From: Armatimonadaceae bacterium
GTDB lineage: Bacteria; Armatimonadota; Armatimonadia; Armatimonadales; Armatimonadaceae
Assembly: GCA_030447685.1 (NCBI GenBank)
Contig: JAUJOK010000009.1
Span: 4,543 to 68,542 of the forward strand
Direction: 5' to 3'
DNA length: 64,000 bases
The notes under the pieces are model-generated. The model was not told where the DNA came from. It made no database searches and saw only the letters and a list, made by a program, of their open reading frames with translations. The translations under genes were made by a program, and so were the position numbers. Positions 8,225-41,244 of this stretch are shown one piece after another (the stretch's first letter is position 1; the number at the start of each line of letters is the position of its first letter).

Positions 8225-8488
8225 TTAGACCCACCTGCTGCTCCTTATAGCCTTAGCCCAAAAAACTGCCGCCGTGATCCACCAGCCCGCTACGATGGTC
8301 TCTATTAGAAATGGCACTTGCTGAGGCACAGTCAGCAGTATACTGAAAAGAATCGCAGCCACGGACGTAGCGATTGCCATCTTAATCGAATCCCGGAAGC
8401 TTCTATAGTACGCCTCTCGCTTCCGTGCGCGCTGTTCCTGAATTATGAAGTCGATAGGCTCAATGGCAACCACGCGTTCTGGAAGCAT
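8225..8488 (-). CDS. small membrane protein, hypothetical (possibly a fragment)
   Basis: 87-aa ORF with one hydrophobic helix 'IATSVAAILFSILLTVPQQVPFLIETIVAGWWITAAVFW'. Open frame extends upstream without an ATG, so it may be a remnant. Confidence 0.25.
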   Translation of the reverse strand: MLPERVVAIEPIDFIIQEQRARKREAYYRSFRDSIKMAIATSVAAILFSILLTVPQQVPFLIETIVAGWWITAAVFWAKAIRSSRWV

Positions 8489-25100: not shown

Positions 25101-26642
25101 TTGACGCTCCGCCGGGCGCGATGGTACACTGGAACCGTCATGGCGACCACCCCGACGGCTCCTCCTTCCGATTCTTCGCCTCCCACCAGCGCCCGGCGCG
25201 AACGGTTCGGACTCAAGGCGCGCATCAAGCTGCGCCTCGCGCTCGATATACCCCGTGCGGCGCGGCATTCGTTCCTGTGGGACAGCATCGCCGGGATGTG
25301 CGCCGGGGCGTACATGGGAATGACCTTCCCCTTCTTCGTCCGCATCGCGCGCGGCGAACTGAACGCGCCGGAAGCCACCATTGCCGTGATGACCGCCGCC
25401 CCCTTTATCGGCAACCTGCTTTCTCCCCTGTGGGCACGGCAGATGGAGGGAAAGAGCAAGCTCCCGTTCGTGCTCGGCTCATGGATTCCGGCGCGCGCGC
25501 TGCTTTTTCTGATGCCGCTCGCAACCTTCCCGGCGCTGTTTGTGGCTCTGGTATCCGGTCTTCAGTTTATCGGGACGATCTCGTCACCGGCATACACCAC
25601 GCTGATGCGCGACATCTACCCGGATCGCGCGCGGGGGCGGCTGCTGGGATACGTGCGGGTCGGAGCGCAGACCTTCATGTTCCTGGCGACGCTGACGACG
25701 GGCCGCCTGCTCGACTACCAAATTTCGTACCGCTATCTATTCCCGGTCGCGGGCCTGCTGGGGCTGGCGGCAGCTTTTTCGTTTTCTCGTGTCCGACCAC
25801 TTTCCGCCGAGGCCCATGTCACCGAAAGCACGCGCCGCCTGAGCGCGCACGAATTCATGCTGGACACGCTTTCCATCCTGCGGGAAAATGTCGGCTACCG
25901 CTGGTTTGCGCTGTCGGTATTCACCTACGGTTTCGGCAAGCCGGGGTGGTTTAAGAACGCCCTGTCACGTATTGCTGCTGAACGACAACGGCTTCGCTCT
26001 AACCGTCTTGAAACTCGCCGCTCACGCGCAATAGACTCCCCTTCGCTCTTGGTGCAGATGTTTTCGATACTCCGTAACAACATCGGCTATCGGTGGTTCG
26101 CTTCTTCGGTCATGGTATATGGATTCGCGAACCTGGCTATGGTGCCGCTTTACCAGCTCTTTCAGGTCGACGTGTTGAAGATAAGCAACACGCAAATCGC
26201 GAACCTGGCAAACTGTACATCGCTATCCGCTATTGCAGGGTCATTCTTTTGGGGGCGTTATATGGACAGGCACGGATCACCCAAAGCCGTGTTTCTTTCC
26301 ATCAGTATCGTGGCCCTGATTCCCTTTATCTACCTGTCAGCGAAGTCGGTAACATGGCTCTTGATTGCTGCGGCGCTCTCGGGATTTGGCTTCGCTGGTA
26401 TCGAGTTGTCGTATATGACGAGCATCCTCTACTATTCGGAGCCAGGTCGGGAAGCCCAGTATCAGGCTTTACACTCTCTGCTCGTCGGGATTCGGGGACT
26501 CATCGCCCCATTGTTGGCGATTGCGCTGTTAAAGCAGGTTGGCTATGGGCCGATGTTTCTGGCAGGTGCCATCGTTATGTTATTCGGCGCATTTTTGCAG
26601 CTACTGGCTGTCCGCATTGCTCATCGGACGCAGCCTTCCTGA
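25101..26642 (+). CDS. MFS transporter, chimeric: native high-GC 5' two-thirds and a low-GC foreign 3' third with a partially duplicated TM6-like segment
   Basis: 513 aa, 12 or more TM helices. 'LSILRENVGYRWFALSVFTYGFG' (high GC) recurs as 'FSILRNNIGYRWFASSVMVYGFANLA' after a hydrophilic insert 'KPGWFKNALSRIAAERQRLRSNRLETRRSRAIDSPSLLVQM'. GC drops to about 52% from about 25960 to the stop. Confidence 0.8.
   Translation: MTLRRARWYTGTVMATTPTAPPSDSSPPTSARRERFGLKARIKLRLALDIPRAARHSFLWDSIAGMCAGAYMGMTFPFFVRIARGELNAPEATIAVMTAAPFIGNLLSPLWARQMEGKSKLPFVLGSWIPARALLFLMPLATFPALFVALVSGLQFIGTISSPAYTTLMRDIYPDRARGRLLGYVRVGAQTFMFLATLTTGRLLDYQISYRYLFPVAGLLGLAAAFSFSRVRPLSAEAHVTESTRRLSAHEFMLDTLSILRENVGYRWFALSVFTYGFGKPGWFKNALSRIAAERQRLRSNRLETRRSRAIDSPSLLVQMFSILRNNIGYRWFASSVMVYGFANLAMVPLYQLFQVDVLKISNTQIANLANCTSLSAIAGSFFWGRYMDRHGSPKAVFLSISIVALIPFIYLSAKSVTWLLIAAALSGFGFAGIELSYMTSILYYSEPGREAQYQALHSLLVGIRGLIAPLLAIALLKQVGYGPMFLAGAIVMLFGAFLQLLAVRIAHRTQPS
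25992..26001. repeat. 10-bp sequence CTTCGCTCTA at the left MFS junction; identical copy at 45579-45588 (candidate att core or crossover site)
   Basis: 'cggCTTCGCTCTAacc' at 25992-26001 and 'tatCTTCGCTCTActt' at 45579-45588. Each lies at the boundary between native-looking and foreign-looking MFS sequence; spacing 19,587 bp. Confidence 0.35.
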
Positions 26643-26740
26643 CTGAGCCGTACGGTCGTGCCTCCATGCCCCTTCAGTCCCTTACGCGTCCCGCCCTGCA
26701 CACATCCAGCCCGCCTTGGGGGCAAGTTCTCACGGGGCGT

Positions 26741-26756
26741 GCGATTGACAATAGCA
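26741..26756 (+). promoter_or_regulatory. operator-like inverted repeat GCGATTGACAATAGCA upstream of the blaI-like gene (contains a TTGACA -35-like hexamer)
   Basis: One mismatch from the perfect copy TGCTATTGACAATAGCA at 28252-28268. 25 nt upstream of the blaI-like start. Confidence 0.45.
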
Positions 26757-26780
26757 GATACGACTGATATACTTGCGGAT

Positions 26781-27218
26781 ATGCTGTCCCCCCGTGCTAC
26801 ACGCCGTTTCGCACCCGCGAAAACGGGCCTCGTTGCTCCACTCGGAGAGCTGGAACGAGCGGTCATGGCAGTTGTGTGGTCGCATCCTGCCCCGATGAAC
26901 GTAAGTGATGTTCATGCCGCTCTTGCCCACGAACCGCGCGTGGCATATACCACGGTGAAAACCACACTGGAGCGCCTGGCACAGAAAGGCATCCTGGTAC
27001 AGAGCAAGTCGGGGAAAGCTTATCTGTATCACGCGGTAGTGTCCGAAGCGGAACTGGAGCGGCGTATCGTGACGGCGGCGCTGGATCGTCTTGTGGAGCA
27101 GTTCCCGCAGGCGGTCGCGTCGTTCTTTGTTCACCCTGACCCGAATGTTTCGCAGGCGCAGCTCGATCTGTTGCGGGATGCTATCGAGCGGCGGCGGGAG
27201 GGCGAGGATGATGCCTGA
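26781..27218 (+). CDS. BlaI/MecI/CopY-family (Penicillinase_R) winged-helix transcriptional repressor
   Basis: 'LGELERAVMAVVWSHPAPMNVSDVHAALAHEPRVAYTTVKTTLERLAQKGILVQSKSGKAYLYHAVVSEAELERRIV' is the classic BlaI fold text. Overlaps the next gene by 11 nt. Confidence 0.8.
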   Translation: MLSPRATRRFAPAKTGLVAPLGELERAVMAVVWSHPAPMNVSDVHAALAHEPRVAYTTVKTTLERLAQKGILVQSKSGKAYLYHAVVSEAELERRIVTAALDRLVEQFPQAVASFFVHPDPNVSQAQLDLLRDAIERRREGEDDA

Positions 27219-28188
27219 TCTGTGCCCTATCGTCGCTGCCTTCGCCTTCGCCTATAGCGCGGCCCTGCTCGGCGTCGGTGCCGCGTTGTTCACCACCGCT
27301 TGGTTCGGGCGGAGCCGCCGCGCACCGTCCGCGTTAGAAGCGGCGTGGTGCGCCCTGTTGCCGCTGGTCGCCATTGGGGTGCTGGTCACCATTGCCGTTT
27401 ACGAACCCCACGCACTCGTTGGCAGTACCGCTTCTCATGACCTGTGGCACCTGTGGGCCGAGCGCCTGCACCAAATTCCCGCCTCTCATGGCACGCTGCA
27501 CGCAGCGAACGCTGCCTCGCTGTGTGTCCTCGCCATCTGCCTCGGCAGGACCGCTTACGCCCTGTCGCGTGCTCAGGCATTTGGCAGCGGCCTGCGTTTC
27601 CTCAGCAGCGACCCGCTCCCAGACGTGGCTAACCCTGCCGTGTACTGCCTGCCTTCGGACAAGGCCCTGTGTTTCACCGTGGGCGTACTGCGCCCCCGCG
27701 TGTATCTGACGACGGGTTTGAGGGAGCGGCTGTCCCCGCGGGAGCGTGACGCCGTGCTCGCCCACGAAGCGGCCCATGTGCGGAGGCGCGACGGCCTCTT
27801 GAGCGTCGTTCTCGTAACCTTTTACAACCTGTTCCCGCTGCCTGGCGGATGGCGGCTTTACCACGGGTGGGTCGCCTCTACGGAGCGCGCCTGCGACGCC
27901 GAGGCAGCACGCTCCGTGGGAAGCTCCTGCGATGTCGCCGCCGCCCTGGTCACCGTGGCGCGTCTTGCCCACTCACAGACCCTGCCTGGGGCGGCCTCGT
28001 TCGCGGCGTCGCGGCCCGAGGATGTAGCGGCAAGGGTCCAGGCGCTGCTCGAACATTGCCCGCTCGCCCCGCGCGCCCTGGCGCGGCACCGCATCGGCCT
28101 GGCGGTGCTTGCGGCGCTGAGCTTCTCGGGCCTGCTCGCGGCGTATCCTGTCATCCTGCACCTTGCCGAGATGTTTGCCTACCACTGA
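27208..28188 (+). CDS. BlaR1-like M56-family zinc metalloprotease signal transducer, lacking a penicillin-binding sensor domain
   Basis: 326 aa. TM helices, then 'GVLRPRVYLTTGLRERLSPRERDAVLAHEAAHVRRRDGLLSVV' with an HEXXH motif (AHEAAH), then more TM helices. Translationally coupled to the blaI-like gene. Confidence 0.8.
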   Translation: MMPDLCPIVAAFAFAYSAALLGVGAALFTTAWFGRSRRAPSALEAAWCALLPLVAIGVLVTIAVYEPHALVGSTASHDLWHLWAERLHQIPASHGTLHAANAASLCVLAICLGRTAYALSRAQAFGSGLRFLSSDPLPDVANPAVYCLPSDKALCFTVGVLRPRVYLTTGLRERLSPRERDAVLAHEAAHVRRRDGLLSVVLVTFYNLFPLPGGWRLYHGWVASTERACDAEAARSVGSSCDVAAALVTVARLAHSQTLPGAASFAASRPEDVAARVQALLEHCPLAPRALARHRIGLAVLAALSFSGLLAAYPVILHLAEMFAYH

Positions 28189-28251
28189 TCACTACCTTCG
28201 TATCGGAGTATCCATGACCATCATGCCCACCGTTTGTTTAACGCCCGCGAC

Positions 28252-28268
28252 TGCTATTGACAATAGCA
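28252..28268 (+). promoter_or_regulatory. perfect inverted repeat TGCTAT-tgaca-ATAGCA (operator-like, includes TTGACA) upstream of czcC-1
   Basis: 'TGCTATTGACAATAGCA' 26 nt upstream of the OMF start. Shares 15 of 16 nt with the site at 26741-26756. Confidence 0.5.
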
Positions 28269-28293
28269 GACTCGGACACGAGGGGAGGCGTTG

Positions 28294-29583
28294 ATGCTGT
28301 GCCATTGGCCCATCCTCATAGCCTGTCTGTGTACTGCCAGCATCGCCCTGGCACAACCGTCCGCCATTCGAGCGAAGAGTGATATGTTCGCTGCGGACGA
28401 GGCAGTACAGGTTGCGCTGGAGCAAAGCCCCGCTCTGGGCGCAGCACGCCGCCGTGTCGAGGCCGCGACTGCGGCGTTGCGCGGTGCGGGAGCACCGTAC
28501 ACGCCACGGGTGGAACTCGCGCCTGGCGCGGGCTTTACGAATGGGAACGCCCTGCTGTCGCAGCAGTTCGACATTGCGGGACTGCGCACGGCACAAACCC
28601 AACGCGCCGCAGGTGAGCAGAGTGCGGCGCAAGCGCAGGCAGATGCGGTGCGTCTCCAAGTGGTCCTGGAAACACGCACCGCCTACTTCGATCTGGTGCG
28701 GGCCAGGGCGAGCGAGGCGACGGCTCGGGACGCCGTAGGGCTTACCGAGCAGGTGCAGACCATCGTGCGACGGCGTGTCCAGCTCGGGGAAGCGCCTGCG
28801 GTACAGGCGACGCGCGCCGAGATCGAAGTCGCCCGTGCCCAGCAGGAGTTCGTCCGCGCGCAGGCCGATACCCAGGCCCGTGCTGCGATTCTCAATCGGC
28901 TTCTTGGACGGGAGCGACAGCAGCCGATTCAGCCGACGGACAGCCTGACCCTGCCCCCCGCACCACGCCCACTGGAAGAGCAGGTCGCTGAAGCTATGCG
29001 TTTACGCCCCGACCTTCGGGCGGCCCAGGCGCGGCTCGCGGCGTTGCAAGGCGAGGTGGAGGTTGCCCGCGCCCAGGGCAGACCAACCCTGTTCGCGGAG
29101 GTGGCAGCGGATACCTGGAGTCTGGATCGCGCCCCCTTTAGCGGGCGCAACCTGGGTGTACAGGGTCGGCTGAACTTTCCACTTGGTCGCGACCGCGCCC
29201 AGCGTGCCGAGGTGGACCGCACCCGCGCGGTTGCGCTCGCGCAGGAGGCCGAGGTAGAGGTGCTGCGCCGTGCGATTGCTCGCGAAATTGAACAGGCCGC
29301 CGCCGATCTTACCGCCTCACGCCAGATCGCACAGAACTATGAGCAGACGATCCTGCCCCGAACCGCCCAACTGCTGAGCGCCACCCGCGCGGGTTTCGAG
29401 AGCGGTTTGACGACCTTCTTGGAAGTGCTGGAAGCCCAGCGCGTCGCGAGGCAAACCCAGGTCGAGTACCAGACGACCCTGTTTGAGGCCGTGCGTGCCC
29501 GCACCACCCTGGACGCCGCGCTGGGGGCCGCCATTCTCGGCCCGACCCCAATGCCCCCGATCCCCGCAAGACAAATGAGGTAG
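28294..29583 (+). CDS. TolC-family outer membrane efflux protein (CzcC/CusC-like OMF)
   Basis: Signal peptide, two OEP repeats, coiled-coil rich. 'gaggggagg' RBS before TTG/ATG 28291/28294. Confidence 0.85.
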   Translation: MLCHWPILIACLCTASIALAQPSAIRAKSDMFAADEAVQVALEQSPALGAARRRVEAATAALRGAGAPYTPRVELAPGAGFTNGNALLSQQFDIAGLRTAQTQRAAGEQSAAQAQADAVRLQVVLETRTAYFDLVRARASEATARDAVGLTEQVQTIVRRRVQLGEAPAVQATRAEIEVARAQQEFVRAQADTQARAAILNRLLGRERQQPIQPTDSLTLPPAPRPLEEQVAEAMRLRPDLRAAQARLAALQGEVEVARAQGRPTLFAEVAADTWSLDRAPFSGRNLGVQGRLNFPLGRDRAQRAEVDRTRAVALAQEAEVEVLRRAIAREIEQAAADLTASRQIAQNYEQTILPRTAQLLSATRAGFESGLTTFLEVLEAQRVARQTQVEYQTTLFEAVRARTTLDAALGAAILGPTPMPPIPARQMR

Positions 29584-29586
29584 CCC

Positions 29587-31905
29587 ATGAAAGCCAGAAC
29601 CATCACCCACGTTTTCGCACTGCTCGTCGGCGCGCCGCTGCTGCTTCTGTTGCCTGCCCGCGCCCAGGAGGAGGCGGGCCACATGCACGGCCCCGATGGG
29701 CGGCATATCGCCGTCGCCAGCACCTTCGGGGGCCAGGCAGCAGGGCAGCGGAGCATCCTGAGCCACCACGACCTGATGATTACCGATTTGCGCCAGCCTG
29801 GTCCCGACAGGAACGGCAAGGTGGTCGAGGGCTGTGACGTACATTCGGTGATCCACAAGAAGGGTGACCCGAAAGCGGTCATTCACCGCGAGCACAACAC
29901 CTTCGAGCCTGAAAACGGTGTGTACGGCTCGCACATGATGTACCGCGAGCCAGGGGAGTATGTCATTATCGAGAAGGTCACTCTGCCCGATAAGCAGCAG
30001 GTGACTCTGGAGTTCCCGATATGGGTGCCCGCTCCCCAGGGTCAGGCTGAGCACGCCCATCACTCCCCCTGGTGGACAGTACTCGGAGTTGCCGCAATCC
30101 TCCTCGCCATACTGGGTGCATTTCTTTTGGGGAGGCGCAGCGGGCGGCGAACGGTGGCGATGCTGTCTATCGTCGCTCTGGTCACGGGTTCCCTCCCCAT
30201 TGTTCCCACGGCTCATGCGCAGGAAGACGGAGAAGAAGCGGGTCATATGCACGGCCCTGACGGGCGGCACGTCGCCGTTGCCAGTACGTTCGGGGGCGGC
30301 AATGCGCAGGAGCCGCTACGGGCCTACCCCACCGCCGACCGACAGGAGGCCGCCGTCCAGACCCAGGGACACTACCGCTTCCGCCTGTCCATCGAGAACG
30401 AGGAAATGGCCCCGCCTGACCCCGATGTCGTCACCATCTCGTCCGATGCGGCGAAAACCGTCGGGCTGACAACAGTCGCGGCGCGGGCGGCGCGGGGGAC
30501 GAGCGCACTGACGACAACAGGTCAGGTGAAGCCAAACCCGAACCGTGCCGCAACCGTGAACGCGCGTGTCGCGGGGCGCGTGGTGCGCGTAGGGGTGACG
30601 CCAGGAGATGAGGTGAGCGCGGGCCATGTCGTCGCTGTGCTCGACAGCGCCGAAATAGCCCAGGTCCAGGCTGATTTACGCCGAGGCGCGTCTGAGATCG
30701 CCCAGTCGGACGCCGCTGCCGCGCGCGCCCGCTCCCAAATTGCCGAGGCACAGGCCAACCAAGAGCGCGCCCGTGCCGAGGCAAGTCAGGCGCAGGGGCA
30801 GGTGCGGAACGCCGAACGTACTCTGGCACGCCAGCGGGAACTTGCGCGGTCAGGCGCGTTCGCTTCGGGTCCCGTCGAAGCCGCGCGTTCTGCCGTTGCG
30901 ACTGCCGAGGGCGAACTGAACGTTGCGCGCACAGCGCTTGCAACCCTGGAAGCGCAGGCGCGCCGCCTGGAAACAGGCGTCGCCGATGGTGTGGTATCCC
31001 GCCGCGAGGCCGAGACTGCTCAGAGCGCCGCCGCCCAGGGCCGCACCCGCGTCGAAACCGCCCAGCGGCAACTAACGATTGCACGGGCGGCGCTTGCCCG
31101 TGAAGAACAAATCCAGCGCCGCGGGCTGCGCGACGCGCGCGAAGTGCAGCAGGCCCAGGCCGATCTTGCCGCAGCCCAGGCTGCGCTGCGAGCCGCGAAC
31201 GCCGTGGTTCAGAGCGAGGCACGGCGGGTTCAGGCTGCCCGCGGCGGCGCGGCGGAGGCAGAGGCAACGCGCACACGGGCGCGCACCAATCTCGCTTCGG
31301 CGCGCAACCGATTGCGGTTGCTCGGCGCAACGCCCAGCGGCGGCAGTCAGGTGACGGTGGTGACACCACTGGGGGGCGAGGTGGAGGCGCGGCCCGTCAG
31401 CGCAGGCGAAGTGGTGGAGGCGGGGCAGACGCTCGCACGCATCCTGAACACGGACAGCGTGTGGGTCGAGAGCGACGTGTTCGAGAAAGACTTGCCACAA
31501 GTGCGCGTCGGCCAGGCCGTGACTATCGCCGCCGACGCCGTTCCTGGCCGCACCTTCCAGGGGCGCATTTCTTATATTGGTGGCGCGGTGAACCCTGAAA
31601 CTCGCGCCGTGCGTGTCCGCACCGCAGTCACCAACCCTGGCGAGGTGCTCAAGCCCAATATGTTTGTTCGGGTGCTTGTCGGCGCAGGCCGAGGTCGTGC
31701 GATTCTCGTGCCCCAGGAGGCTGTCCAGGAGGACGGGAACGAGCAGGTCGTCTTCATCCAGGAAGGGGAAGGCTACCGCCGCCGCGCTGTTCGGATCGGC
31801 GCGACGCTGGGTGACATGGCAGTGATCGAAGGGGGGCTGAAGGCGGGTGACAAGGTGGTCACGCAAGGCGCGTACCAGTTGCTCGCCTTGGCGAAGAAAG
31901 GATAA
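29587..31905 (+). CDS. RND efflux membrane fusion protein (CzcB/CusB-like) with two tandem N-terminal HMHGPDGRH-motif modules
   Basis: 772 aa. Signal '...LLLLPARAQEEAGHMHGPDGRHIAVASTFGG' then a roughly 130-aa module. A second hydrophobic segment follows, 'WWTVLGVAAILLAILGAFLL...AHAQEDGEEAGHMHGPDGRHVAVASTFGG'. Then canonical HlyD/MFP lipoyl, hairpin coiled-coil and beta-barrel ('VVAVLDSAEIAQ...', 'RVGQAVTIAADAVPGRTFQGRISYIG'). Confidence 0.85.
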   Translation: MKARTITHVFALLVGAPLLLLLPARAQEEAGHMHGPDGRHIAVASTFGGQAAGQRSILSHHDLMITDLRQPGPDRNGKVVEGCDVHSVIHKKGDPKAVIHREHNTFEPENGVYGSHMMYREPGEYVIIEKVTLPDKQQVTLEFPIWVPAPQGQAEHAHHSPWWTVLGVAAILLAILGAFLLGRRSGRRTVAMLSIVALVTGSLPIVPTAHAQEDGEEAGHMHGPDGRHVAVASTFGGGNAQEPLRAYPTADRQEAAVQTQGHYRFRLSIENEEMAPPDPDVVTISSDAAKTVGLTTVAARAARGTSALTTTGQVKPNPNRAATVNARVAGRVVRVGVTPGDEVSAGHVVAVLDSAEIAQVQADLRRGASEIAQSDAAAARARSQIAEAQANQERARAEASQAQGQVRNAERTLARQRELARSGAFASGPVEAARSAVATAEGELNVARTALATLEAQARRLETGVADGVVSRREAETAQSAAAQGRTRVETAQRQLTIARAALAREEQIQRRGLRDAREVQQAQADLAAAQAALRAANAVVQSEARRVQAARGGAAEAEATRTRARTNLASARNRLRLLGATPSGGSQVTVVTPLGGEVEARPVSAGEVVEAGQTLARILNTDSVWVESDVFEKDLPQVRVGQAVTIAADAVPGRTFQGRISYIGGAVNPETRAVRVRTAVTNPGEVLKPNMFVRVLVGAGRGRAILVPQEAVQEDGNEQVVFIQEGEGYRRRAVRIGATLGDMAVIEGGLKAGDKVVTQGAYQLLALAKKG

Positions 31906-31918
31906 GGGACTGCCGTTC

Positions 31919-34900
31919 GTGTTCAACCGCATCATCGAGTTCAGCATCAAAAACCGTGTGCTCGTCTGCGCCGCCGCGCTCATGCTCCTGGTATACGGCG
32001 CGCGGGTCGTCACACAGATGCCCGTGGATGTGCTGCCTGATCTGAACCGCCCCGTGGTCACGGTCATGACCGAGGCGCATGGACTTGCCCCCGAAGAGGT
32101 CGAGCCGCTTGTCACCTTCCCCATCGAGACGGCAATGAACGGCGCGGCGGGGGTGCAGCGGGTTCGTTCGGCTTCCAGCGCGGGGCTTTCCATCGTCTGG
32201 GTGGAGTTCGACTGGGACACCGACATCTTCCGCGCGCGCCAGGTCGTCAACGAAAAGTTGCAGACCGCGCAGGGACGGCTGCCCACGGGCACGTTGCCCT
32301 CACTCGCCCCTGTATCCTCCATCATGGGCGAGGTGCTGCTTGTCTCGCTGTCGAGCAAGGACGGCACCACGCCGCCCATTGAGGTGCGCTCGCTCGCAGA
32401 CTGGGTGGTGCGCCCGCGCCTCCTGGGCGTGCCTGGCGTGTCGCAGGTTGTGCCCATCGGGGGTGGGGCCAAGCAGTTCCAGGTGCTCACCAACCCCGCC
32501 CGCCTCCAGCAATACGGCGTGACGCTCGACCAGTTGACCGAAGCCGCGCGCCAGTCCAACCTGAACACGTCGGGCGGGTTTTTGCAGACGCCGCAGCGCG
32601 AGGCGATCATCCGCATCACGGGCCGCGCCCGCTCCCCCCAGGACATCGCCCGCACCGTTGTCGCTCAGAAAAACGGCGTGCCTGTAACCATTGGGCAGGT
32701 GGCGGAGGTCCGCTTCGGGGCGGGACCGAGGCGCGGTGATGCCAGTGTAAGCGGAGCGCCCGCCGTCATCCTCAGCGTTCAGAAGCAGCCCAACGCAAAT
32801 ACCCTGGAACTGACCCGCGCGCTCGACAAGGCGCTCGGCGACATCCAGGCTGCGCTCCCCCGCGACGTGACGATAAACCGCGACCTGTTCCGCCAGGCCA
32901 CCTTCATTGAGGCCGCCGTGGACAACGTGAAGGAGGCGCTGCGCGACGGCACCATCCTGGTGTTTGTCATCCTGCTCGCCTTTTTGCTGAACCTGAGGGC
33001 TACTTTCATCTCGCTCGTCGCCATACCGCTGTCCTTCGTAATCGCCATGCTGGTTCTGGACCGCTTCGGCATCTCGGTCAATACGATGACGCTCGGTGGG
33101 CTGGCGGTCGCTATCGGGCTGGTGGTGGACGACAGCATCGTGGACGTGGAAAACGTGGTGCGGCGGCTGCGGGAGAACCGCGCGAAGCCTGCTCCACTAC
33201 CGCCACTCCAGGTGGTCTTTGAGGCAAGCGCCGAGGTCCGAAACAGCATTGTGTTCGCCACTGTTATCATTGTGCTGGTCTTCGTGCCGCTCCTGTCACT
33301 GGAGGGCATGGAAGGGCGCGTGTTCCTGCCGCTGGGCCTGGCCTTTATTACCGCACTGACCGCTTCCTTGCTCGTTTCGCTCACGCTAACGCCCGCTCTC
33401 TGCGCCTTTCTGCTCGCCCGCACGGCTAAAAAAACATCCGCCGATCACGCCGAGGACACCTGGCTGGTGCGCCACTTAAAGCGTGGGGACGAGCCGCTGG
33501 TGCGCTGGGCCATTCGCCATCCCACTCCCGTGCTCGCAGGGGCTGCGTTGCTGTCTCTCGCCGCGCTCGCCCTGCTGCCGCGGATGGGACGTGAGTTCCT
33601 GCCCCCGTTCAACGAGGGCAGCCTTTCCATCAGCGCGATCCTGCCTCCTGGTACGGGCCTAACTGAATCGAACCGAATAGGGACCGCTATCGAAAAGCAG
33701 CTCCTGTCCGTGCCTGAAGTTGTCCATACGGGGCGGCGTACGGGGCGCGCTGAGATGGATGAGCACGCCGAGGGCGTCGGCTATTCCGAAATCGACGTGG
33801 GTTTACGTGCGAGCCGACGCTCCCACGGACAGGCGGTCGCCGAGATACGCCGAAAGGTGGAGGCTATCCCTGGCGCGGTGGTCGCTGTCGGACAGCCCAT
33901 CTCGCACCGACTGGACCACCTGTCGTCGGGAGTGCGCGCCGCACTTGCCGTAAAAGTGTATGGCCCCGACCTGGACGCGCTGAGGAGCCGTGCTCAGGAG
34001 GTCCGAAACGTTATGTCCCAGGTGCCTGGCGTCGTGGATTTGCAGGTCGAGCCGCAAATTGAGGTGCCTCAGGTTCGGATCGACATCGACCGAGACCAGG
34101 CCGCGCGCTACGGTCTGACCCCAGGGGAACTCGCCGAAACGCTGGAAACCGCGCTGGGCGGCCATGTGGTCGGGCAGGTCTTGCAGGAACAACGCACCTA
34201 TGACCTTGTGGTCTGGTTTGACGAGGCCGCCCGAGGCGATACGGATGTGATCGGGCGGACACTGGTAAGCACGCCGTCAGGGGCGCGCGTACCGCTCGGG
34301 CAGTTGGCACGGGTTCGCAAGGCGGCGGGGCCGAACACCATCAACCGTGAAAACGTGTCGCGGCGCATCGTGGTCCAGGCCAATGTCCAGGGTCGAGACC
34401 TGAACAGCGTCGTGACTGACCTCCAGCGGCGGATGGGCGCGGTGCAGGCGGCGTGGCCCACGGGCTACTTCGTTGAGTACGGGGGCCAGTTCGAGAGCCA
34501 GCAGAACGCCATGAGCCGCATCCTGCTGCTTGGAGCGTTCACCGTCGTTGCCATCTTCCTTGCGCTTTATGTTGCCCTCCAATCGTGGCGGCTCGCCCTC
34601 CAAGTCATGGTAAACCTGCCGCTTGCTCTCGTTGGCGGTGTCCTTGCCGTTTACCTGACAGGCGGCGTGCTGTCCGTGGCCTCGTTGGTCGGCTTTATCA
34701 CTCTGTTCGGTATCGCCACCCGCAACGGCATCATGATGCTGTCCCACTATGTCCACCTGATGCGCGAGGAGGGGGAAGCCTTTGGGGAACACATGATCGT
34801 GCGCGGTACGCTGGAGCGACTTTCACCCGTCCTTATGACTGCCCTCGCCGCCGCACTCGGTCTGCTGCCGCTGGCGCTTTCAGTGGGTGAGCCTGGCAAG

Positions 34901-35125
34901 GAACTTTTGCAGCCGATTGCCGTGGTTATTTTGGGCGGGCTGCTATCCAGCACGCTGCTCGACCAGTTGGTCACGCCCGCGCTGTTCTTCCGCTTCGGAC
35001 GCGCCGAATGGGAGGGTTCCGCCGAGGGGAGCGGGAACGTTATGCCGCACGCAGGGGACGATCAGGGTACATCTGTTGCCCCGACGGGCGGGGGCGGGAG
35101 AAGCCAGCCTGAACCCGCGCACTGA
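31919..35125 (+). CDS. heavy-metal-efflux RND transporter (CzcA/CusA family)
   Basis: About 1068 aa from the GTG at 31919 ('MFNRIIEFSIKNRVLV...'). 12 TM helices and two large periplasmic loops. RBS 'aaggataaggga'. Confidence 0.9.
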   Translation: MFNRIIEFSIKNRVLVCAAALMLLVYGARVVTQMPVDVLPDLNRPVVTVMTEAHGLAPEEVEPLVTFPIETAMNGAAGVQRVRSASSAGLSIVWVEFDWDTDIFRARQVVNEKLQTAQGRLPTGTLPSLAPVSSIMGEVLLVSLSSKDGTTPPIEVRSLADWVVRPRLLGVPGVSQVVPIGGGAKQFQVLTNPARLQQYGVTLDQLTEAARQSNLNTSGGFLQTPQREAIIRITGRARSPQDIARTVVAQKNGVPVTIGQVAEVRFGAGPRRGDASVSGAPAVILSVQKQPNANTLELTRALDKALGDIQAALPRDVTINRDLFRQATFIEAAVDNVKEALRDGTILVFVILLAFLLNLRATFISLVAIPLSFVIAMLVLDRFGISVNTMTLGGLAVAIGLVVDDSIVDVENVVRRLRENRAKPAPLPPLQVVFEASAEVRNSIVFATVIIVLVFVPLLSLEGMEGRVFLPLGLAFITALTASLLVSLTLTPALCAFLLARTAKKTSADHAEDTWLVRHLKRGDEPLVRWAIRHPTPVLAGAALLSLAALALLPRMGREFLPPFNEGSLSISAILPPGTGLTESNRIGTAIEKQLLSVPEVVHTGRRTGRAEMDEHAEGVGYSEIDVGLRASRRSHGQAVAEIRRKVEAIPGAVVAVGQPISHRLDHLSSGVRAALAVKVYGPDLDALRSRAQEVRNVMSQVPGVVDLQVEPQIEVPQVRIDIDRDQAARYGLTPGELAETLETALGGHVVGQVLQEQRTYDLVVWFDEAARGDTDVIGRTLVSTPSGARVPLGQLARVRKAAGPNTINRENVSRRIVVQANVQGRDLNSVVTDLQRRMGAVQAAWPTGYFVEYGGQFESQQNAMSRILLLGAFTVVAIFLALYVALQSWRLALQVMVNLPLALVGGVLAVYLTGGVLSVASLVGFITLFGIATRNGIMMLSHYVHLMREEGEAFGEHMIVRGTLERLSPVLMTALAAALGLLPLALSVGEPGKELLQPIAVVILGGLLSSTLLDQLVTPALFFRFGRAEWEGSAEGSGNVMPHAGDDQGTSVAPTGGGGRSQPEPAH

Positions 35126-35150
35126 ATTCGTTTTTCCAGGGAGTAAAGAT

Positions 35151-36164
35151 ATGAGTGAAACAGGATGGAGCCGCCGCCGCCTCCTCGGCGCGGCGGTCGT
35201 GACGGCAGGCGCGGCGGGAACCGCCGCTGCTCTGGGGGGCGCGGACCAGGCGCTCGCTGCGACTCAGCAAGACCGTCGAAAGAGAAAGACCCCACCCATG
35301 ACCGCCGAGGAGATGGCGGCAGTGGACACTGCGCTGGGTAAGAAGGGCCGCTACGTGGAAGCAGAGGCCGTCTACACCACGGCGCTGCCGCGTGCTGACC
35401 TGAAGGTGTCGGTCAAGGGTGATCCCGTCCCGACCGCACTGGGATTCGGCGGCTGGGTGTCGCTGAAGAAGACGCTGGACGGCAAGAACACGGTCCTGAT
35501 GAGTGACACCGTGCTGCTCCAGGACGAAGTGAACCCGCTGATCTCGGCGGCGCAGGCGAACGGCCTGGAGGTCAGCGCGATTCATAACCACTTCTTCTAC
35601 GAGGAGCCGCGCATCTTCTACATGCACGTCCACGGCATGGGCGCTGCCGCAGACCTGGCGCGCCGTTATGCCACAGCAATCCAGACGACCAAACTGTTTC
35701 CCGCCAATCAGCCACCCGCAGGCCAAGCGCCCGCGCGCACGGGCAAAGAGATATTCGACCTGCCCACCCTGGACAAGATCGTGGGCAACACGGGCAGCGT
35801 GAACGGGCCTACCTACAAGTACACCATCGGGCGCAGCGACCTTTTCATCACGGCGATGGGTGCGGAAATGACCGCTGCCATCGGACTGAACACCTGGGCT
35901 TCCTTTGCGGGCACGGCAGAAAGTGCCCATATTGCGGGCGATGTCGCGATGCTGGAGCCTGAGGTGAACCCCGTCATCAAGGCCCTGCGCAGGCATAACC
36001 TGGAAGTGGTCGCCGTCCACAATCACATGCTGGGCGAAGACCCGCGTATCTTCTTCCTGCATTACCTGGGGCGCGGCCCCGCTACGACGCTGGCACGAGG
36101 CTTCCGCGCCGCCCTGGATGAACTGGGCAGGCACGGCAGGAGCGGGATGCGGATGGGAAGGTAG
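35151..36164 (+). CDS. Tat-signal secreted DUF1259-family protein (two internal repeats)
   Basis: 'MSETGWSRRRLLGAAVVTAGAAGTAAALG' is a twin-arginine signal. Repeated 'EVSAIHNHFF...' / 'EVVAVHNHML...' halves. RBS 'gggag'. Confidence 0.7.
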   Translation: MSETGWSRRRLLGAAVVTAGAAGTAAALGGADQALAATQQDRRKRKTPPMTAEEMAAVDTALGKKGRYVEAEAVYTTALPRADLKVSVKGDPVPTALGFGGWVSLKKTLDGKNTVLMSDTVLLQDEVNPLISAAQANGLEVSAIHNHFFYEEPRIFYMHVHGMGAAADLARRYATAIQTTKLFPANQPPAGQAPARTGKEIFDLPTLDKIVGNTGSVNGPTYKYTIGRSDLFITAMGAEMTAAIGLNTWASFAGTAESAHIAGDVAMLEPEVNPVIKALRRHNLEVVAVHNHMLGEDPRIFFLHYLGRGPATTLARGFRAALDELGRHGRSGMRMGR

Positions 36165-36169
36165 TTCTC

Positions 36170-36508
36170 GTGGCAGAGGCGCGGCCCTGCTCTCCTGGGT
36201 GGCGACGGCACGTGCCTCTGCTCTTTGCTATCTTCCTGGACATGATGGGCTTTGGCATGGTCATTCCTGACCTGCAAACACGCCTGGAAGCCTTCGGCGC
36301 GCAGGGCTGGGCCATCGGGCTGGTGTTGTCGAGCTACTTTCTGACGCAGATCGTGGTGTCGCCGCTCTGGGGGCGGCTCAGCGATAAGGTGGGCCGCAAG
36401 CCCGTGCTGGTAATCTGCGGCACGCTCTCGGCAACCTCAATGGTGCTGGCGGGCTGTGTGCTGCTGGTGGCGGCACTCTTACCGCTGAGGGGCTATGCTA
36501 CTGCGTAG
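36170..36508 (+). pseudogene. N-terminal fragment (about 3 TM helices) of an MFS transporter, truncated
   Basis: 'LLFAIFLDMMGFGMVIPDLQ...WGRLSDKVGRKPVLVICG' is the MFS TM1 to loop 2-3 signature, but the ORF ends after 112 aa and is followed by about 190 bp of lower-GC non-coding DNA. Confidence 0.5.
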
Positions 36509-36698: not shown

Positions 36699-37223
36699 CT
36701 AAGCAGATACGTTTTTCGGTGGCTGGGAGATTATCGGTGGCGGGCGCAGTTGGATACCTGCCGCGCGGAGCCACTGGTCTATCATCCAGCGTGGTGGCAG
36801 TGTGTCCCAGCCCGCGACCTCGGCAGCGCATCGGGCAATGTTTCCGAACGGGCGGTGTGACTCGGCATACAGTGCCCCCAGAGTCTCACGTGACAGCGGA
36901 CAGGGATGCGGCTGCGCCACCTGAAGATTTTCTCGCCGCAGGTCCAGCGGGTCGCCATTTTTGTGCAGGACGCGCCGCCGTGCCCCCGCCTGGGTAATGA
37001 GCCGCGACAACTGCACGCGCTTACGTTTCGCGCCCGCTTCCTGCGGGACTGAGGCGACGACCTTCAGGCCACCACCCAGGTTGTAAGTGCGCCACGTATA
37101 CCGCTCCAGCAGCGCGGCGTCCTGGGCGTCGATCACGATGGTGTGCCCGCTGGCGATTCGGGCCGTGATGGGTTGCGCTTCGACAGCGGCGCAGCCCCCG
37201 CCTTCAGTGCTCATGGCCTGCAT
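36699..37223 (-). CDS. HNH endonuclease family protein
   Basis: 'VLHKNGDPLDLRRENLQV' matches the HNH motif (H-x-N-G-D-x-x-D-N-R-x-x-N-L). 174 aa. Overlaps the czcD stop by 20 nt. Confidence 0.55.
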   Translation of the reverse strand: MQAMSTEGGGCAAVEAQPITARIASGHTIVIDAQDAALLERYTWRTYNLGGGLKVVASVPQEAGAKRKRVQLSRLITQAGARRRVLHKNGDPLDLRRENLQVAQPHPCPLSRETLGALYAESHRPFGNIARCAAEVAGWDTLPPRWMIDQWLRAAGIQLRPPPIISQPPKNVSA

Positions 37224-38148
37224 GAGATTCCGCCGTTGCGCCCAGGTTGCAGTCCGCGTCCTCGGGCGCGCATATGCCCCACGTCTCCACCTGGACCGTA
37301 GTGTGGGTCATGTCAAACTCGCGCTCCAGTACCTCCCGTGCGGCTTGAAGCACCTCCTGCTCGCTCTGCACCCCCGCCTCGTCCAGAACCAGATGCGCCG
37401 TCAGGCTGTGTTTGCCGCTCGTGATCGCCCAGACATGAAGATCATGAACGTCCTGCACCCCTGGCAACGCCCGCAGGGACGCGTCAATCTGCTCCAACTC
37501 GATACCCTCAGGCACGCCCTCCAGCAGGATGTTCACGCTCTCCGAGAGCAGCGTCCAGGTGCGGGGCAATACCCACAGGCCAATCAGGACGGCGAAGATC
37601 GGGTCCACCTGCCACCAGCCTGTGAACTGGATCACGAGCGCCCCCGCGATCACGGCCACCGAACCCAGCAGGTCACTCCACACCTCCAGGTAGGCTCCCT
37701 TCATGTTCAGGCTCTGGGAGCTGCCTGCCTGGAGAACGCGCATTGAGAGGAGGTTGACCATAAACCCGAGCGCGGCTACGCCGAGCATCCAACCCGACTG
37801 GATTTCGGGCGGCTCCTGGAACCGCTTCCACGCCTCCCAAAGGATATAGAAGGCGACCAGGAACAGCACCGCCGCGTTCACCGCCGCCGCCAGTATCTCG
37901 AAGCGGTAGTAGCCGAAGGTGCGCTTTTTGTCGGCGGGCCGCTTGCTGAAGCGAATCGCGACCAGCGCGATTCCGAGGGCAGCGACATCGGTGAGCATGT
38001 GGGCGGCGTCGGAAAGCAGCGCCAGGCTCCCCGTCACGAAGCCGCCCACGACTTCGGCTATCAAGTACGTGGCTGTCAGAGTCAGGGCGATCCTCAGCGC
38101 CCGCTCGTTACCTGCGCCCCCGTGAGTGTGGCTATGGCCTGACCCCAT
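37204..38148 (-). CDS. cation diffusion facilitator transporter (CzcD-like)
   Basis: His-rich N-terminus 'MGSGHSHTHGG', six TM helices with 'LLSDAAHMLTDV', C-terminal cytoplasmic domain. RBS 'gaaggagg' 6 nt before the ATG. Confidence 0.85.
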   Translation of the reverse strand: MGSGHSHTHGGAGNERALRIALTLTATYLIAEVVGGFVTGSLALLSDAAHMLTDVAALGIALVAIRFSKRPADKKRTFGYYRFEILAAAVNAAVLFLVAFYILWEAWKRFQEPPEIQSGWMLGVAALGFMVNLLSMRVLQAGSSQSLNMKGAYLEVWSDLLGSVAVIAGALVIQFTGWWQVDPIFAVLIGLWVLPRTWTLLSESVNILLEGVPEGIELEQIDASLRALPGVQDVHDLHVWAITSGKHSLTAHLVLDEAGVQSEQEVLQAAREVLEREFDMTHTTVQVETWGICAPEDADCNLGATAESHAGHEH

Positions 38149-41100
38149 GCGCGGCCTCCTTCCCTTCAAACCAGGCGTACAGCGTGGGAAGCACGATCAG
38201 GGTCAGCAGCGTGCTGGACAGGATGCCCCCGATCACGACGGTCGCCAGCGGGCGTTGTACCTCGGCCCCGACCCCCGAAGACAGGGCCATCGGGACGAAA
38301 CCCAGGCTCGCCACGAGTGCGGTCATTAGCACGGGCCGCAGTCGTGTGTGCGCCCCTTCCCGAACTGCCTCAGGCACGTCCCGCCCCTCCTCGCGCAGCT
38401 TGTTGATGGCCGACACCAGAACCACACCGTTCAACACGGCGACCCCAAAGAGAGCAATGAACCCGACCCCCGCCGAGATGGAGAAGGGAAGCCCCCGCAG
38501 CAGCAGGGCGAGGATGCCCCCCGTGACCGCGAGCGGCACACCCGTAAAGATCATTGCGGCCTGCCTGAGCGACCCGAAGGTCATGAACAACAGCAGGAAG
38601 ATCAGCGCCAGCGCCAGGGGGACGACAATCAGGAGTCGCGTGCGCGCGCTCTGGAGGTTCTCGAACTGCCCGCCCCACTCGATGCGGTAGCCCGTGGGCA
38701 GTTTCACCTGCCCCGCCACCTGCGCCTGGGCGTCGGCGACGAATCCGCCCAGGTCGCGCCCGCGTACATTCGCCTGAACCACGACCCGACGCGCCCCCTG
38801 CTCACGGCTTACCTGCGCGGGCGAGGGACGGATGGCGATCTGGGCTACCTGGGAAAGCGAAACCCGCTCGCCGCCTGGGGCAGCGACGCGCAGCTCCTCC
38901 AGAGCGGTTATGTCGTTGCGCAGGGCCTCGGGCAGCTTCACCACGATGTCGAACCGGCGGTCCCCTTCGATCACCTGGCCCACGGTACGCCCGCCGATGA
39001 ACGCCTCAATTACCTCCTGCACGTCGGCGACGTTGATGCCGAACCGCGCGGCGGCGGCGCGGTCAATGGTGATCTCCAGCGTCGGCAGGCCCGTGGTCTG
39101 CTCCATCGTCACGTCCTCAGCCCCCGCCACCTTTCCGAGCACCGCCTGGACGCGGTTGCCCAGGCTGGATAGGGTTTCCAGGTCTTCACCAAACACCTTC
39201 ACGGCGATGTCCGCCTTCACGCCCGACACCAACTCATCCGTGCGAAGCTGGATCGGCTGCGAAAACGCGTAGCCCTGGCCTGGGACTTCCCTTTCCAGCC
39301 GCTCCTGCATCTGGGAAATGAGCTTTTCTTTGGTCAGGCCCCGCCGCCACTGCCCGCGATCCTTCAAGGTGATAATCATGTCGCCAACGCTCGGGGGCAT
39401 CGGGTCGGTGGCAAGCTCCGCGCTCCCGATGCGCGTGTAGGCGTCTACCACCTCGGGGAAGGACTTGACGACCCGCTCCGCCGCCCCGACCATAGCGACG
39501 GAATACTCGACCGATACGCCGGGGGGGCGGATGGGCTGGATCGCGATGGCTCCTTCGTCCAGGCGCGGGATGAACTCCGAGCCGAGCAGCGGAAACAGCG
39601 CGGCGCAGCCCAGGAAAAAGAGCACGCTTCCCGCCGCGACTATCCCGCGCCGCCGAAGCGCCCATTCCAGGGTCGGACGGTACAGGCGGTCCGCCGCGCG
39701 CAGGATCAGGTTGTCCTTTTCCCGCGTATCGCGGGACAGGCAAAGCGCGCAGAGCGCGGGGATAAGAGTGAGCGTCAGGATCAGCGCGCCCACGAGTGCG
39801 AGCGCGACGGTATAGGCCATCGGTCGGAACATCTTCCCCTCGATGCCCGTGAGGGTCATGATGGGCAGATAGACGATAATGATGATCGCCACGCCGAAGG
39901 TAATGGGCGTGCCGGGGTGTGCCGACCTCGCGCGCCGAGGCGAGGACGTTCTGGATCACCTCGGCGCGCGTCAGGGTGCTCCCCCGATGCTCCCGCGCCT
40001 CCGCCAGGCGACGGACAGCGTTCTCGACCATGACCACCCCGCCATCCACGATCAGGCCGAAGTCAATCGCGCCGAGCGAAAGCAGGTTGGCGGAGATGCC
40101 GAAGTGCTGCATCCCGATCACGGCGAACAGCATGGCGAGCGGAATGGTGCAGGCGACGATCAGCGCGCCGCGCACGTTGCCGAGCAGCAGGAGCAGCACG
40201 GCGACGACCAGGATGCCGCCTTCCAGCAGGTTGCGCTCAACCGTACCGATGGTCTTTTCAACCAGTTCGGTGCGGTCATAGACGGTCGCGAGTCGCACGT
40301 CGGGGGGCAGGGAAGCGCGCACCTGGCGCACCTTCTCGTCCACGGCAAGCGACACGGTGCGGGAGTTCGCGCCTTTGAGCATCATCGCGATGCCCAGGAC
40401 GGTTTCTTTGCCGTTGTGCGTGGCCGCGCCCTGGCGCAGTCCGCCGCCCTCGGTGACGGCGGCGACATCCCGCAGGAAGATCGGGGTGCCGTGTTCGGCG
40501 GCAACAACGATGCTCTCGATATCGCCCTTGTTGCGGACGACCCCGATACCCCGCACCAGCAGGCGCTCTGCTCCCTTGACGATGTAGCCGCCGCCCGCGT
40601 TCGCGTTGTTGCGCTCGACCGCTTCAATGACTTCACGCAGGGTCACACCCCGCGACAGCAGCCGCTGCGGGTCGATCTCTACCTGGTACTGCTTCTCGAA
40701 CCCGCCCTGGCTGTTTACCTCAGCGACTCCTGGCACGGTGCGAAGCTGCGGCTTGACCAGGAAGTCCTGGAGCGTACGCAATTCGGTCGGGCTGCGCTTC
40801 TCGGAGTCCAGGGTGTACTGGTAAATCTCGCCCAGCCCCGTCGAAACAGGGGCCATTTCGGGCGCGCCGACACCTTCGGGCAGGCTTTCCCGCGCTCCCG
40901 CGAGCTTCTCGCCCACGAGCTGGCGCGCGAAGTACAGGTTCACATCGTCGGCGAAGACGACCGTCACCTGGGACAGCCCGTACTGCGAAAGGGAGCGCAC
41001 CTCGGTTACATCGGGCAACCCTCCCAGTGCTACTTCGATGGGAAAGGTAACCAACTTTTCCACTTCGGCAGGCGCGAGGCCAGGAACCGCCGTGTTGATC

Positions 41101-41243
41101 TGGACCTGATTATTGGTCACGTCAGGCAGGGCGTCGATGGGCAGGCGCTGGAAAGCGACCAGCCCCCCGAGCACAAGGAAGACCGTCCCGATCAGGACGA
41201 GAAGGCGCTGCCGCACGCCAAATTCAAGGATGCGTTCGATCAT
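38132..41243 (-). pseudogene. second CzcA/CusA-family RND transporter, split by a 1-nt frameshift at a C-run near 39905
   Basis: N-terminal 'MIERILEFGVRQRLLVLIGT...ASAREVGTP' continues in another frame as 'ITFGVAIIIIVYLPIMTLTGIEGKMFRPM...'. Removing one C from 'acaccccggcacgccc' restores '...EVGTPGTPITFGVAIIII'. Confidence 0.8.
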
Positions 41244-41244
41244 T

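Follow-up and report, generated by a model that had tools for sequence, protein, structure and literature searches.

Introduction

Only about 6% of M56 (BlaR-like) membrane metalloproteases carry a transpeptidase domain, and about 96% are encoded near a BlaI-like gene (PMC13492132). According to two 2026 papers, the signals perceived by the many BlaR proteins devoid of a penicillin-binding domain are unknown. One pair for which a signal has been described is PetR/PetP of Synechocystis sp. PCC 6803, a copper-responsive BlaI/BlaR pair whose protease is a four-helix protein lacking a sensor domain: PetP needs copper to degrade PetR, two methionines in the 14-residue loop between its transmembrane helices 2 and 3 (TM2-TM3 loop) were proposed as ligands, and the petRP mRNA is unaffected by copper (bioRxiv 10.1101/2020.07.31.226407). 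A review adds that PetRP controls no copper homeostasis genes. From the same repressor family, CopY itself coordinates Cu(I) or Zn(II), through a C-terminal CxC, and has no partner protease, and a 2024 review of bacterial metal sensing includes, from this family, only CopY-type members bearing the CxC (PMC11672702). The present work deals with a locus found in a 64,000-nucleotide stretch of DNA from an Armatimonadaceae bacterium (the whole stretch is referred to here as the window), where the genes for a BlaI-type repressor and for a BlaR-like protease without sensor domain precede those of a heavy-metal efflux pump of the resistance-nodulation-division type (HME-RND). We consider it reasonably probable that these genes constitute a BlaI/BlaR-type switch working by regulated proteolysis, with PetR/PetP as its nearest counterpart in design, and that this switch controls the efflux operon.

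An initial annotation of this DNA had proposed an autoregulated circuit of this type sharing its operator with the pump. The proposal is strongly supported by the synteny, by the presence of operators in nine of nine close loci and by the matched operator arms of distant relatives, although four of its component claims had to be corrected, as indicated below. It had also treated the missing penicillin-binding domain as an oddity, which in view of the figures just mentioned is the ordinary situation among M56 proteins, and had presented CopY as the known metal-responsive member of the family, a status that PetR/PetP, being copper-responsive, has as well.

HME-RND pumps are normally described as being under the control of two-component systems (CusRS, CzcRS) or of an extracytoplasmic function (ECF) system (CnrYXH), and repressor proteolysis would add a regulatory class to these. 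Sensor-less BlaR proteins and the copper-responsive PetR/PetP were already known; what would be new here is a switch of this kind tied to an HME-RND pump and provided with a loop containing a histidine cluster. No report of a link between BlaI/M56 genes and czc, cus, RND or HME-RND genes was found in the full-text literature, the coverage of which is incomplete, so that this is absence of evidence only.

Two matched operators in the window and in related loci

The plus strand of the window carries, in this order, the genes for a 145-residue repressor (26781 to 27218), an M56 protease (27211 to 28188), an outer-membrane factor (28294 to 29583), a membrane-fusion (adaptor) protein (29587 to 31905) and an HME-RND inner-membrane pump (31919 to 35125). 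A perfect 17-bp palindrome, TGCTATTGACAATAGCA, is found at 28252 to 28268, as the initial annotation had pointed out, and turned out to be the core of an even longer one, the perfect 19-bp palindrome CTGCTATTGACAATAGCAG (28251 to 28269). The near-copy with one mismatch that had also been noticed, TGCGATTGACAATAGCA, does exist, at 26740 to 26756, although it starts one base before the position originally assigned (26741). When up to three mismatches were allowed, these two were the sole matches in the 64-kb window, whereas 0.03 were expected by chance, and none of 100 dinucleotide-preserving shuffles reached the observed count. The 17-bp sites end 24 nt before the repressor ATG (26781) and 25 nt before the ATG at 28294, one or two bases at most from the 25 and 26 nt first reported. 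The corresponding 19-bp elements, given without strand, are denoted here as the putative operators O1 (26739 to 26757, GTGCGA-TTGACAA-TAGCAG), which overlaps the -35 box of the repressor promoter, and O2 (28251 to 28269, CTGCTA-TTGACAA-TAGCAG), located between the M56 and pump genes, 24 nt 5' of the start codon of the outer-membrane factor.

The same arrangement is observed in eight other loci, which together with the window make up the nine close loci considered in this work: an ENA contig (L001), an Armatimonadota metagenome-assembled genome (MAG; L002), a Chthonomonadales MAG (L004) and the contigs L083, L163, L164, L165 and L166. One of these relatives was among the matches listed by a metagenome scan, and the others were obtained by single look-ups; in a species-level genome collection, full-length members of the protease family occurred in only two genomes, both from Armatimonadota. 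As far as the contigs reach, the order repressor, M56, outer-membrane factor, adaptor and RND on the same strand is maintained in these nine independent loci, with protease identities of 41-51%. The outer-membrane factor lies downstream of M56 in eight of them, L164 lacking it, and the repressor stop and the protease start overlap by 8 nt in every locus with called genes. The search for the palindrome upstream of homologous operons, which the initial annotation had suggested, showed the pattern CTRCKA-N7-TMGYAG at both positions, O1 and O2, in all nine. In these loci, matches with at most one mismatch are confined to O1 and O2, with two qualifications, namely an intragenic site at 8290 in the window and L165, whose O1 departs from the pattern at two positions. 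The 7-nt spacer of O1 is always TTGAC(R)N, while that of O2 is variable (CTGTCAA, CCGTTGG, CTAGCAA and others) and is not followed by a -10 box.

The site at 8290 to 8308, CTACGATGGTCTCTATTAG, has one mismatch to the operator consensus and was considered as a third operator, but it falls inside a small minus-strand open reading frame (ORF), lacks the TTGAC spacer and belongs to a region of lower G+C content at third codon positions, so that it is probably a chance match. With two mismatches allowed, the degenerate pattern was found 24 times in the window versus 18 expected, and therefore no wider regulon can be claimed. The L002 locus has PSCyt, PSD1 and DUF1501 genes as neighbors.

More distant relatives provided a further line of evidence. 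The next-best M56 loci, which come from a Gloeobacterales MAG, a delta-proteobacterial MAG, a Polyangiaceae MAG, a Chromatiales MAG and several metagenome contigs, also adjoin a BlaI-like gene, an adaptor gene and an HME-like RND gene whose product is 32-56% identical to the window pump. The arms found in them are ACCGA-N7-TCGGT, at both sites in L006, L007, L009 and L030 and at O2 in L019, L084, L085, L095 and L105; TACTA-N7-TAGTA, in L101 and L141; and CTCCGA-N7-TCGGAG, in L020. There are, thus, four classes of arms, which agree between O1 and O2 within a locus and differ between lineages, while the spacer of O1 stays as TTGAC(R). The agreement of the arms within each locus argues for true operators, and this covariation is the strongest computational evidence presented here that the sites would be bound by the product of the adjacent repressor gene. 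Exact matches to CTRCKA-N7-TMGYAG are also found in four Acidobacteria loci (L012, L014, L023 and L047), about 3.5-4.3 kb downstream of the start of an only distantly related M56 gene, and may serve the BlaI-like repressors of those loci as operators.

The single promoter-like site detected between 26400 and 28500, denoted P1 (26745 to 26773, plus strand), is composed of a TTGACA -35 box (26745 to 26750), a 17-nt spacer with a TG extension and a TATACT -10 box (26768 to 26773), and matches 11 of 12 positions. A TATACT-like -10 box follows O1 at 17-18 nt in the nine close loci which, considering the TTGAC(R)N spacer, means that O1 overlaps the -35 box. Only 7 nt separate the P1 -10 box from the repressor ATG, and both the box and a gap of 6-10 nt to the ATG are kept in all nine; consequently, a leaderless mRNA is predicted for the repressor of each locus. 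The short gap (26768 to 26783 in the window) was also seen in L001-L166, L006, L007 and L101, which include distant lineages with other arms, and a leaderless regulator mRNA seems to be a conserved feature of the class. The situation of O2 is different: no -10 box follows it, either by eye or in a promoter scan of the window, and this fact, together with its variable spacer, indicates that the TTGACA hexamer of the window O2 is not a conserved promoter element. The initial suggestion that both sites contain a -35-like hexamer, and that repressor binding would occlude a promoter at each, can thus be maintained for O1 but not for O2. Since there is one strong promoter and no terminator-like site was found between the M56 and outer-membrane factor genes, we infer that a single transcript starts at P1 and that O2 is an additional operator internal to it.

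The repressor and its coupled protease

The product of the first gene was correctly assigned from the outset to the Penicillinase_R family. It matches Pfam PF03965 (E 6e-27; 94.7 bits versus a cut-off of 22.6, residues 21-136), among solved structures the closest is that of Rv1846c from M. tuberculosis (2g9w, E 6e-14), and its identity to the repressors of the eight other loci is 60-68%. The sequence FPxAVASFF is invariant across the nine proteins; within it, AVASFF (residues 111-116, encoded at 27111 to 27128 on the plus strand) represents a putative scissile region, as the MecI N101|F102 bond aligns with F115|F116. The window repressor lacks Cys altogether, and the nine proteins have no conserved Cys. 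Although the CopY/TcrY model (TIGR02698) is its best NCBIfam match, the score (57.6 bits) is below the equivalog cut-off of 121.95, and the C-terminal CxCxxxxCxC (or CxC) metal site is absent from the window protein.

The two genes, described initially as translationally coupled, overlap at the stop of the repressor and the start of the protease (ATGATGCCTGA). The length of 326 residues given to the protease corresponds to an ATG at 27208, whereas the alignment of its relatives favors the ATG at 27211, yielding a protein of 325 residues and the same 8-nt overlap as in six other loci; residue numbers follow here the 326-residue count, in which the last residue is H326. The assignment to the M56 family is borne out by the match to PF05569 (39.1 bits, cut-off 31), and the Peptidase_M48 and HtpX models are matched too. 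The HEXXH sequence noticed in the initial annotation is part of the catalytic motifs H186-E-A-A-H190 and E226-R-A-C-D230 (27763 to 27897, plus strand), which are invariant in an alignment of 26 family members (A1) and match the H201EXXH and E242XXXD motifs of BlaR1 (PMC9834060). Downstream, the stretch G-A-A-S-F265 (27991 to 28005, plus strand), with an invariant Phe and followed by the invariant R276, is a candidate autocleavage loop by analogy to BlaR1, which is cut at S283|F284 and has R294. An AlphaFold2 model of the protein (predicted local distance difference test 91, predicted template modeling score 0.88) places a beta-bridge at residues 263-264. The A-S-F found in both the repressor and this loop may be one and the same recognition element. 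The best fold match of the model in the PDB is S. aureus BlaR1 (E 1e-3, template modeling score about 0.45), followed by Ste24 and HtpX.

A domain search confirmed that the protease has no sensor domain: the penicillin-binding (transpeptidase) domain is absent (17.8 bits with the BlaR1 model NF000326, versus a cut-off of 400), and the protein stops 8 residues past TM4, its last transmembrane helix. The possibility that it could be a truncated BlaR1 pseudogene, contemplated in the initial annotation, was refuted by the existence of a family of proteins of similar length. A word-indexed search yielded about 28 full-length relatives of 310-368 residues (39-48% identity), and a profile search of 1.84 billion representatives delimited a tight family of about 46 clusters (E < 1e-43), then a sister family of equal length (136 proteins in all at E up to 1e-30) and, beyond, a general M56 background of 10,341 proteins at E up to 1e-10. 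The approximately 46 clusters, of about 320 residues, have in common the HEXXH...EXXXD motifs, the BlaR1-like Ser-Phe loop and six invariant histidines. Residues H77, W80, H81, H94, H98, H186, E187, H190, E226, R227, C229, D230, F265, R276, H318 and H326 are invariant in A1, and the invariance of H326, the C-terminal residue, excludes truncation.

A histidine cluster on the predicted periplasmic face

Hydropathy and charge bias indicate an N-out topology for the protease, with a cytoplasmic loop at residues 33-45 (three Arg), a cytoplasmic protease domain, TM4 at residues 295-320 and a short periplasmic tail. The TM2-TM3 loop (residues 66-100, encoded at 27403 to 27507, plus strand), which corresponds to the EL1 loop of BlaR1, contains six His, one Arg and three acidic residues, a composition that agrees with a periplasmic location. 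Four of these histidines are invariant and form two HxxxH pairs (H77 and H81, with W80 between them also invariant, and H94 and H98). The model places the pairs on consecutive helices, the first within residues 74-89 and the second at the start of residues 91-132. At the periplasmic end of TM4, the C-terminal sequence H318-L-A-E321...H326 (28159 to 28185, plus strand) contributes two more, so that the six invariant histidines would all be on the predicted periplasmic face. The modeled helices, the hydropathy and the positive-inside bias agree on a four-helix scaffold with an extracytoplasmic TM2-TM3 loop and a cytoplasmic protease. In BlaR1, EL1 and helix alpha-3 transmit the signal to the protease (PMC9834060), and it is precisely the position of EL1 that the histidine cluster occupies.

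The sister family (A2) displays a comparable layout, with a DHCxxHxxxHxHLCxxH loop and an invariant C-terminal HHxxE; in a profile-profile comparison with A1 (probability 100%, E 4e-49), H318 and E321 align with the latter. Among 166 M56 loci fetched, those with such His or His/Cys loops are linked to an RND gene wherever the downstream DNA is sufficient, while 141 of the 145 loci without the loop motifs show no RND linkage. The fixed histidine cluster on the outer face of the protease probably senses metal. A broader generalization, plausible although short of probable, is that a class of periplasmic metal sensors extends across phyla, in which sensor-less BlaR-type proteases with a His (or His/Cys) site in EL1 and at the C-terminus of TM4 would switch HME-RND operons through cleavage of a BlaI-type repressor acting at two matched operators.

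The pump operon, its metal context and its surroundings

The outer-membrane factor is of the OEP/TolC-like type (PF02321, E 2e-33), and the 772-residue adaptor is recognized by TIGR01730 and by a CzcB/NccB model. The pump (ACR_tran), whose ORF opens at 31847 and has a probable GTG start at 31919, exceeds the cut-off of the curated heavy-metal model TIGR00914 (848.8 versus 701.45 bits), but the label czcCBA given to the operon in the initial annotation is too specific. The pump is about equally distant from ZneA (1e-153) and CusA (5e-144), and its TM4 motif, AIGLVVDDSIVDVEN (AIG-VDD-VEN), is unlike the CzcA form, DFG-DGA-VEN. The methionine triad of CusA, M573/M623/M672, is absent, the aligned residues being Ser, Tyr or Gly, and His. 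At the positions of ZneA D602, E610, D654 and D658, the pump has His, Glu, His and Asp.

The adaptor bears a 290-residue His-rich N-terminal extension, with two copies of GHMHGPDGRH plus SHHDL, HREHN and EPENGVYGSHM, that is kept in seven loci. It yielded no Pfam family match. The extension (29587 to 30460) comprises a signal peptide, the first GHMHGPDGRH, a predicted beta-sandwich, a transmembrane hairpin and the second GHMHGPDGRH, and the region contains a DNA repeat (29668 to 29733 and 30232 to 30297). The weak fold matches of the beta-sandwich (E about 7e-3) are enriched in the periplasmic metal-binding proteins PmoD, FtrA/P19, CrdA and CopC. In other loci, the module has ZIP, CNNM, CDF, CusF/SCO1 and DtxR-type genes as neighbors. 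On the basis of the pump motifs, the residues at the ZneA sites and the His-rich adaptor, we infer that the signal would more likely be a divalent transition metal than Cu(I) or Ag(I).

Immediately 3' of the pump gene, the window encodes a DUF1259 protein (35148 to 36164) with a Tat-like signal (SRRRLLG), which was rejected as a member of the module, as it was not found in the other eight loci. A second HME-RND operon is located on the minus strand (37204 to 44243) and includes an outer-membrane factor (42960 to 44243), an adaptor with His-rich ends (41245 to 42963) and a CDF gene (37204 to 38169). Its RND gene appears as two overlapping ORFs (39234 to 41321 and 38132 to 39892), the frameshift near 39890 reflecting either a pseudogene or an assembly error, and its product has a CzcA-type TM4 motif, DFGLIVDGGVVMVEN (DFG-DGG-VEN). 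The CTRCKA-N7-TMGYAG operator is absent from this second operon.

Pieces of major facilitator superfamily (MFS) genes flank the metal-resistance region, at 25101 to 26642, 36170 to 36508 (a 112-residue N-terminal fragment) and 45672 to 46139. The first of these ORFs contains an internal duplication junction (SILRENVGYRWF... / SILRNNIGYRWF...), and its C-terminal half is 55% identical to 45672 to 46112. The bracketing MFS fragments suggest that a block of about 19 kb with both pump operons may have been acquired or rearranged by recombination. Elsewhere in the window (4922 to 8047), a PAS ORF ends at a TAG codon (5891 to 5893) that is followed at once by the in-frame ATG of a PAS-GGDEF-EAL ORF, and these are either two abutting genes or a single amber-interrupted gene.

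A proposed proteolytic switch and its alternatives

All these observations can be integrated in a model with three stages. In the off state, a repressor dimer would occupy the two CTRCKA-N7-TMGYAG operators; occupancy of O1 would block the leaderless repressor-protease transcript and, via read-through, that of the pump, while O2 would constitute a second block, acting either as a roadblock or as the operator of a promoter not yet recognized. Upon exposure, a divalent transition metal in the periplasm would bind to the histidine cluster, that is, the four loop histidines plus H318, E321 and H326 at the end of TM4, and this binding would move TM3 and thereby activate the cytoplasmic gluzincin site. 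Finally, the activated protease would cut the repressor at AVAS-F-F, freeing both operators and derepressing its own operon and the pump.

Several facts weigh against this model. The histidine cluster could sense pH or be structural instead of binding metal, and the fold match of the protease to BlaR1 is only moderate. The pump has no CzcA-type motif and lacks the methionine triad of CusA; O2 is without a recognizable -35/-10 pair; and the sensing of metal by the loop of PetP is itself no more than a proposal.

The first of these points leads to the alternative that best withstands the evidence, although we regard it as unlikely: the switch would operate in the same way but in response to a non-metal signal, such as the pH of the periplasm, stress on the envelope or membrane, or an organic compound exported by the pump. 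For CenIR and PvmSR, two other sensor-less BlaR systems, no signal is known and a metal is not the obvious candidate; histidines, in turn, titrate close to neutral pH, and the substrate of the pump is not established. In contrast, the pump passes the curated heavy-metal RND model, the adaptor contains conserved His motifs, metal-homeostasis genes are found as neighbors, and the invariant loop cysteines of the sister family fit metal binding better than pH sensing.

It is considerably less probable that the repressor acts at O1 and O2 but is released independently of the M56 protein, the latter being a quality-control protease of the HtpX/Ste24 type. The matches to the Peptidase_M48 and HtpX models and the appearance of Ste24 and HtpX among the fold matches would suit this notion, which is difficult to reconcile with the 8-nt overlap between both genes kept in the other loci with called genes, with the fact that some 96% of M56 genes have a blaI-like gene in their vicinity (PMC13492132), and with the invariant Phe block at the MecI cut position and the similar A-S-F loop in the protease.

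Similarly improbable, in our opinion, is that the repressor itself senses cytoplasmic metal, in a CopY-like manner, and the protease only clears or matures it, without conveying any signal. CopY is an established direct copper sensor, and CopY/TcrY provides the best NCBIfam match for the repressor; yet the score stays at 57.6 bits, under the 121.95 cut-off, the CxCxxxxCxC is missing, with no Cys in the window protein and none conserved among the nine, and the invariant periplasmic histidines of the protease would be left unexplained. Finally, that the palindromes are fortuitous or non-regulatory, or the M56 gene a remnant of a truncated BlaR1, has nothing in its favor but the short length of the motif and can be dismissed in view of the 0.03 matches expected in shuffles, the position kept in nine loci, the arms that covary in distant lineages and the approximately 46 same-length clusters with an invariant final residue.

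If the cross-phylum class of metal-sensing proteases is confirmed, bacteria would have a third general way to perceive periplasmic metal, in addition to two-component systems and ECF anti-sigma factors, and a definite signal could be assigned to at least one large group of 'orphan' BlaR proteins. The comparative data suggest that the repressor-proteolysis switch occurs in Armatimonadota, Myxococcota-like, gamma-proteobacterial and other lineages. A candidate ligand set (H77, H81, H94, H98, H318 and H326) and a defined output (two operators and one pump) make the question of the BlaR signal directly testable, and the answer could clarify both the sensing of copper by PetP and whether EL1 is the original signal input of BlaR-type proteases.

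Comparison with known systems

The module shares with PetR/PetP the combination of a BlaI-family repressor and a four-helix M48/M56 protease without penicillin-binding domain, the stop/start overlap of their genes and a TM2-TM3 loop as the proposed metal site; in PetRP, the loss of PetR is triggered by metal and depends on the protease. However, the loop of PetP, compared here from its description, has 14 residues and two conserved Met, whereas that of the window protein has about 35 residues, four invariant His and no Met. In addition, PetR targets petE and petJ, while the genes adjacent here are those of an HME-RND pump; the petRP mRNA is constant with copper, whereas O1 lies on the promoter of the module itself; and the core site of PetR is GACA-N3-TGTC, instead of CTRCKA-N7-TMGYAG.

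With BlaI/BlaR1 and MecI/MecR1 (S. aureus, B. licheniformis), the similarities concern the winged-helix repressor, the Phe-containing cut site (putative here), the gluzincin HEXXH...EXXXD motifs in a four-helix scaffold and the Ser|Phe autocleavage loop followed by an Arg (a candidate in the window protein). In contrast to them, the protease described here has no C-terminal transpeptidase domain, a metal pump takes the place of a beta-lactamase or PBP2a as the output, the operator differs from the TACA/TGTA type, and the genes are co-directional, with two separated operators, instead of divergent. Rv1846c/Rv1845c (M. tuberculosis), CenIR (C. difficile) and PvmSR (P. aeruginosa) also have an M56 protease without transpeptidase domain, but they show no linkage to a metal pump, and no conserved cluster of loop and C-terminal histidines has been reported for any of them.

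CopY/TcrY of Firmicutes belong to the same repressor family, control metal export and, as mentioned, provide the best NCBIfam match; they differ from the present repressor, which has no conserved Cys and is accompanied by a coupled protease, and the operator of CopY is TACANNTGTA. As for the regulators usually associated with HME-RND operons, no two-component or ECF genes flank the pump operon in the window. CusRS, CzcRS and CnrYXH resemble the proposed switch in that the sensing of periplasmic metal turns on an HME-RND operon, and they depart from it in the means employed, which are phosphotransfer or the release of a sigma factor, and not the proteolysis of a repressor.

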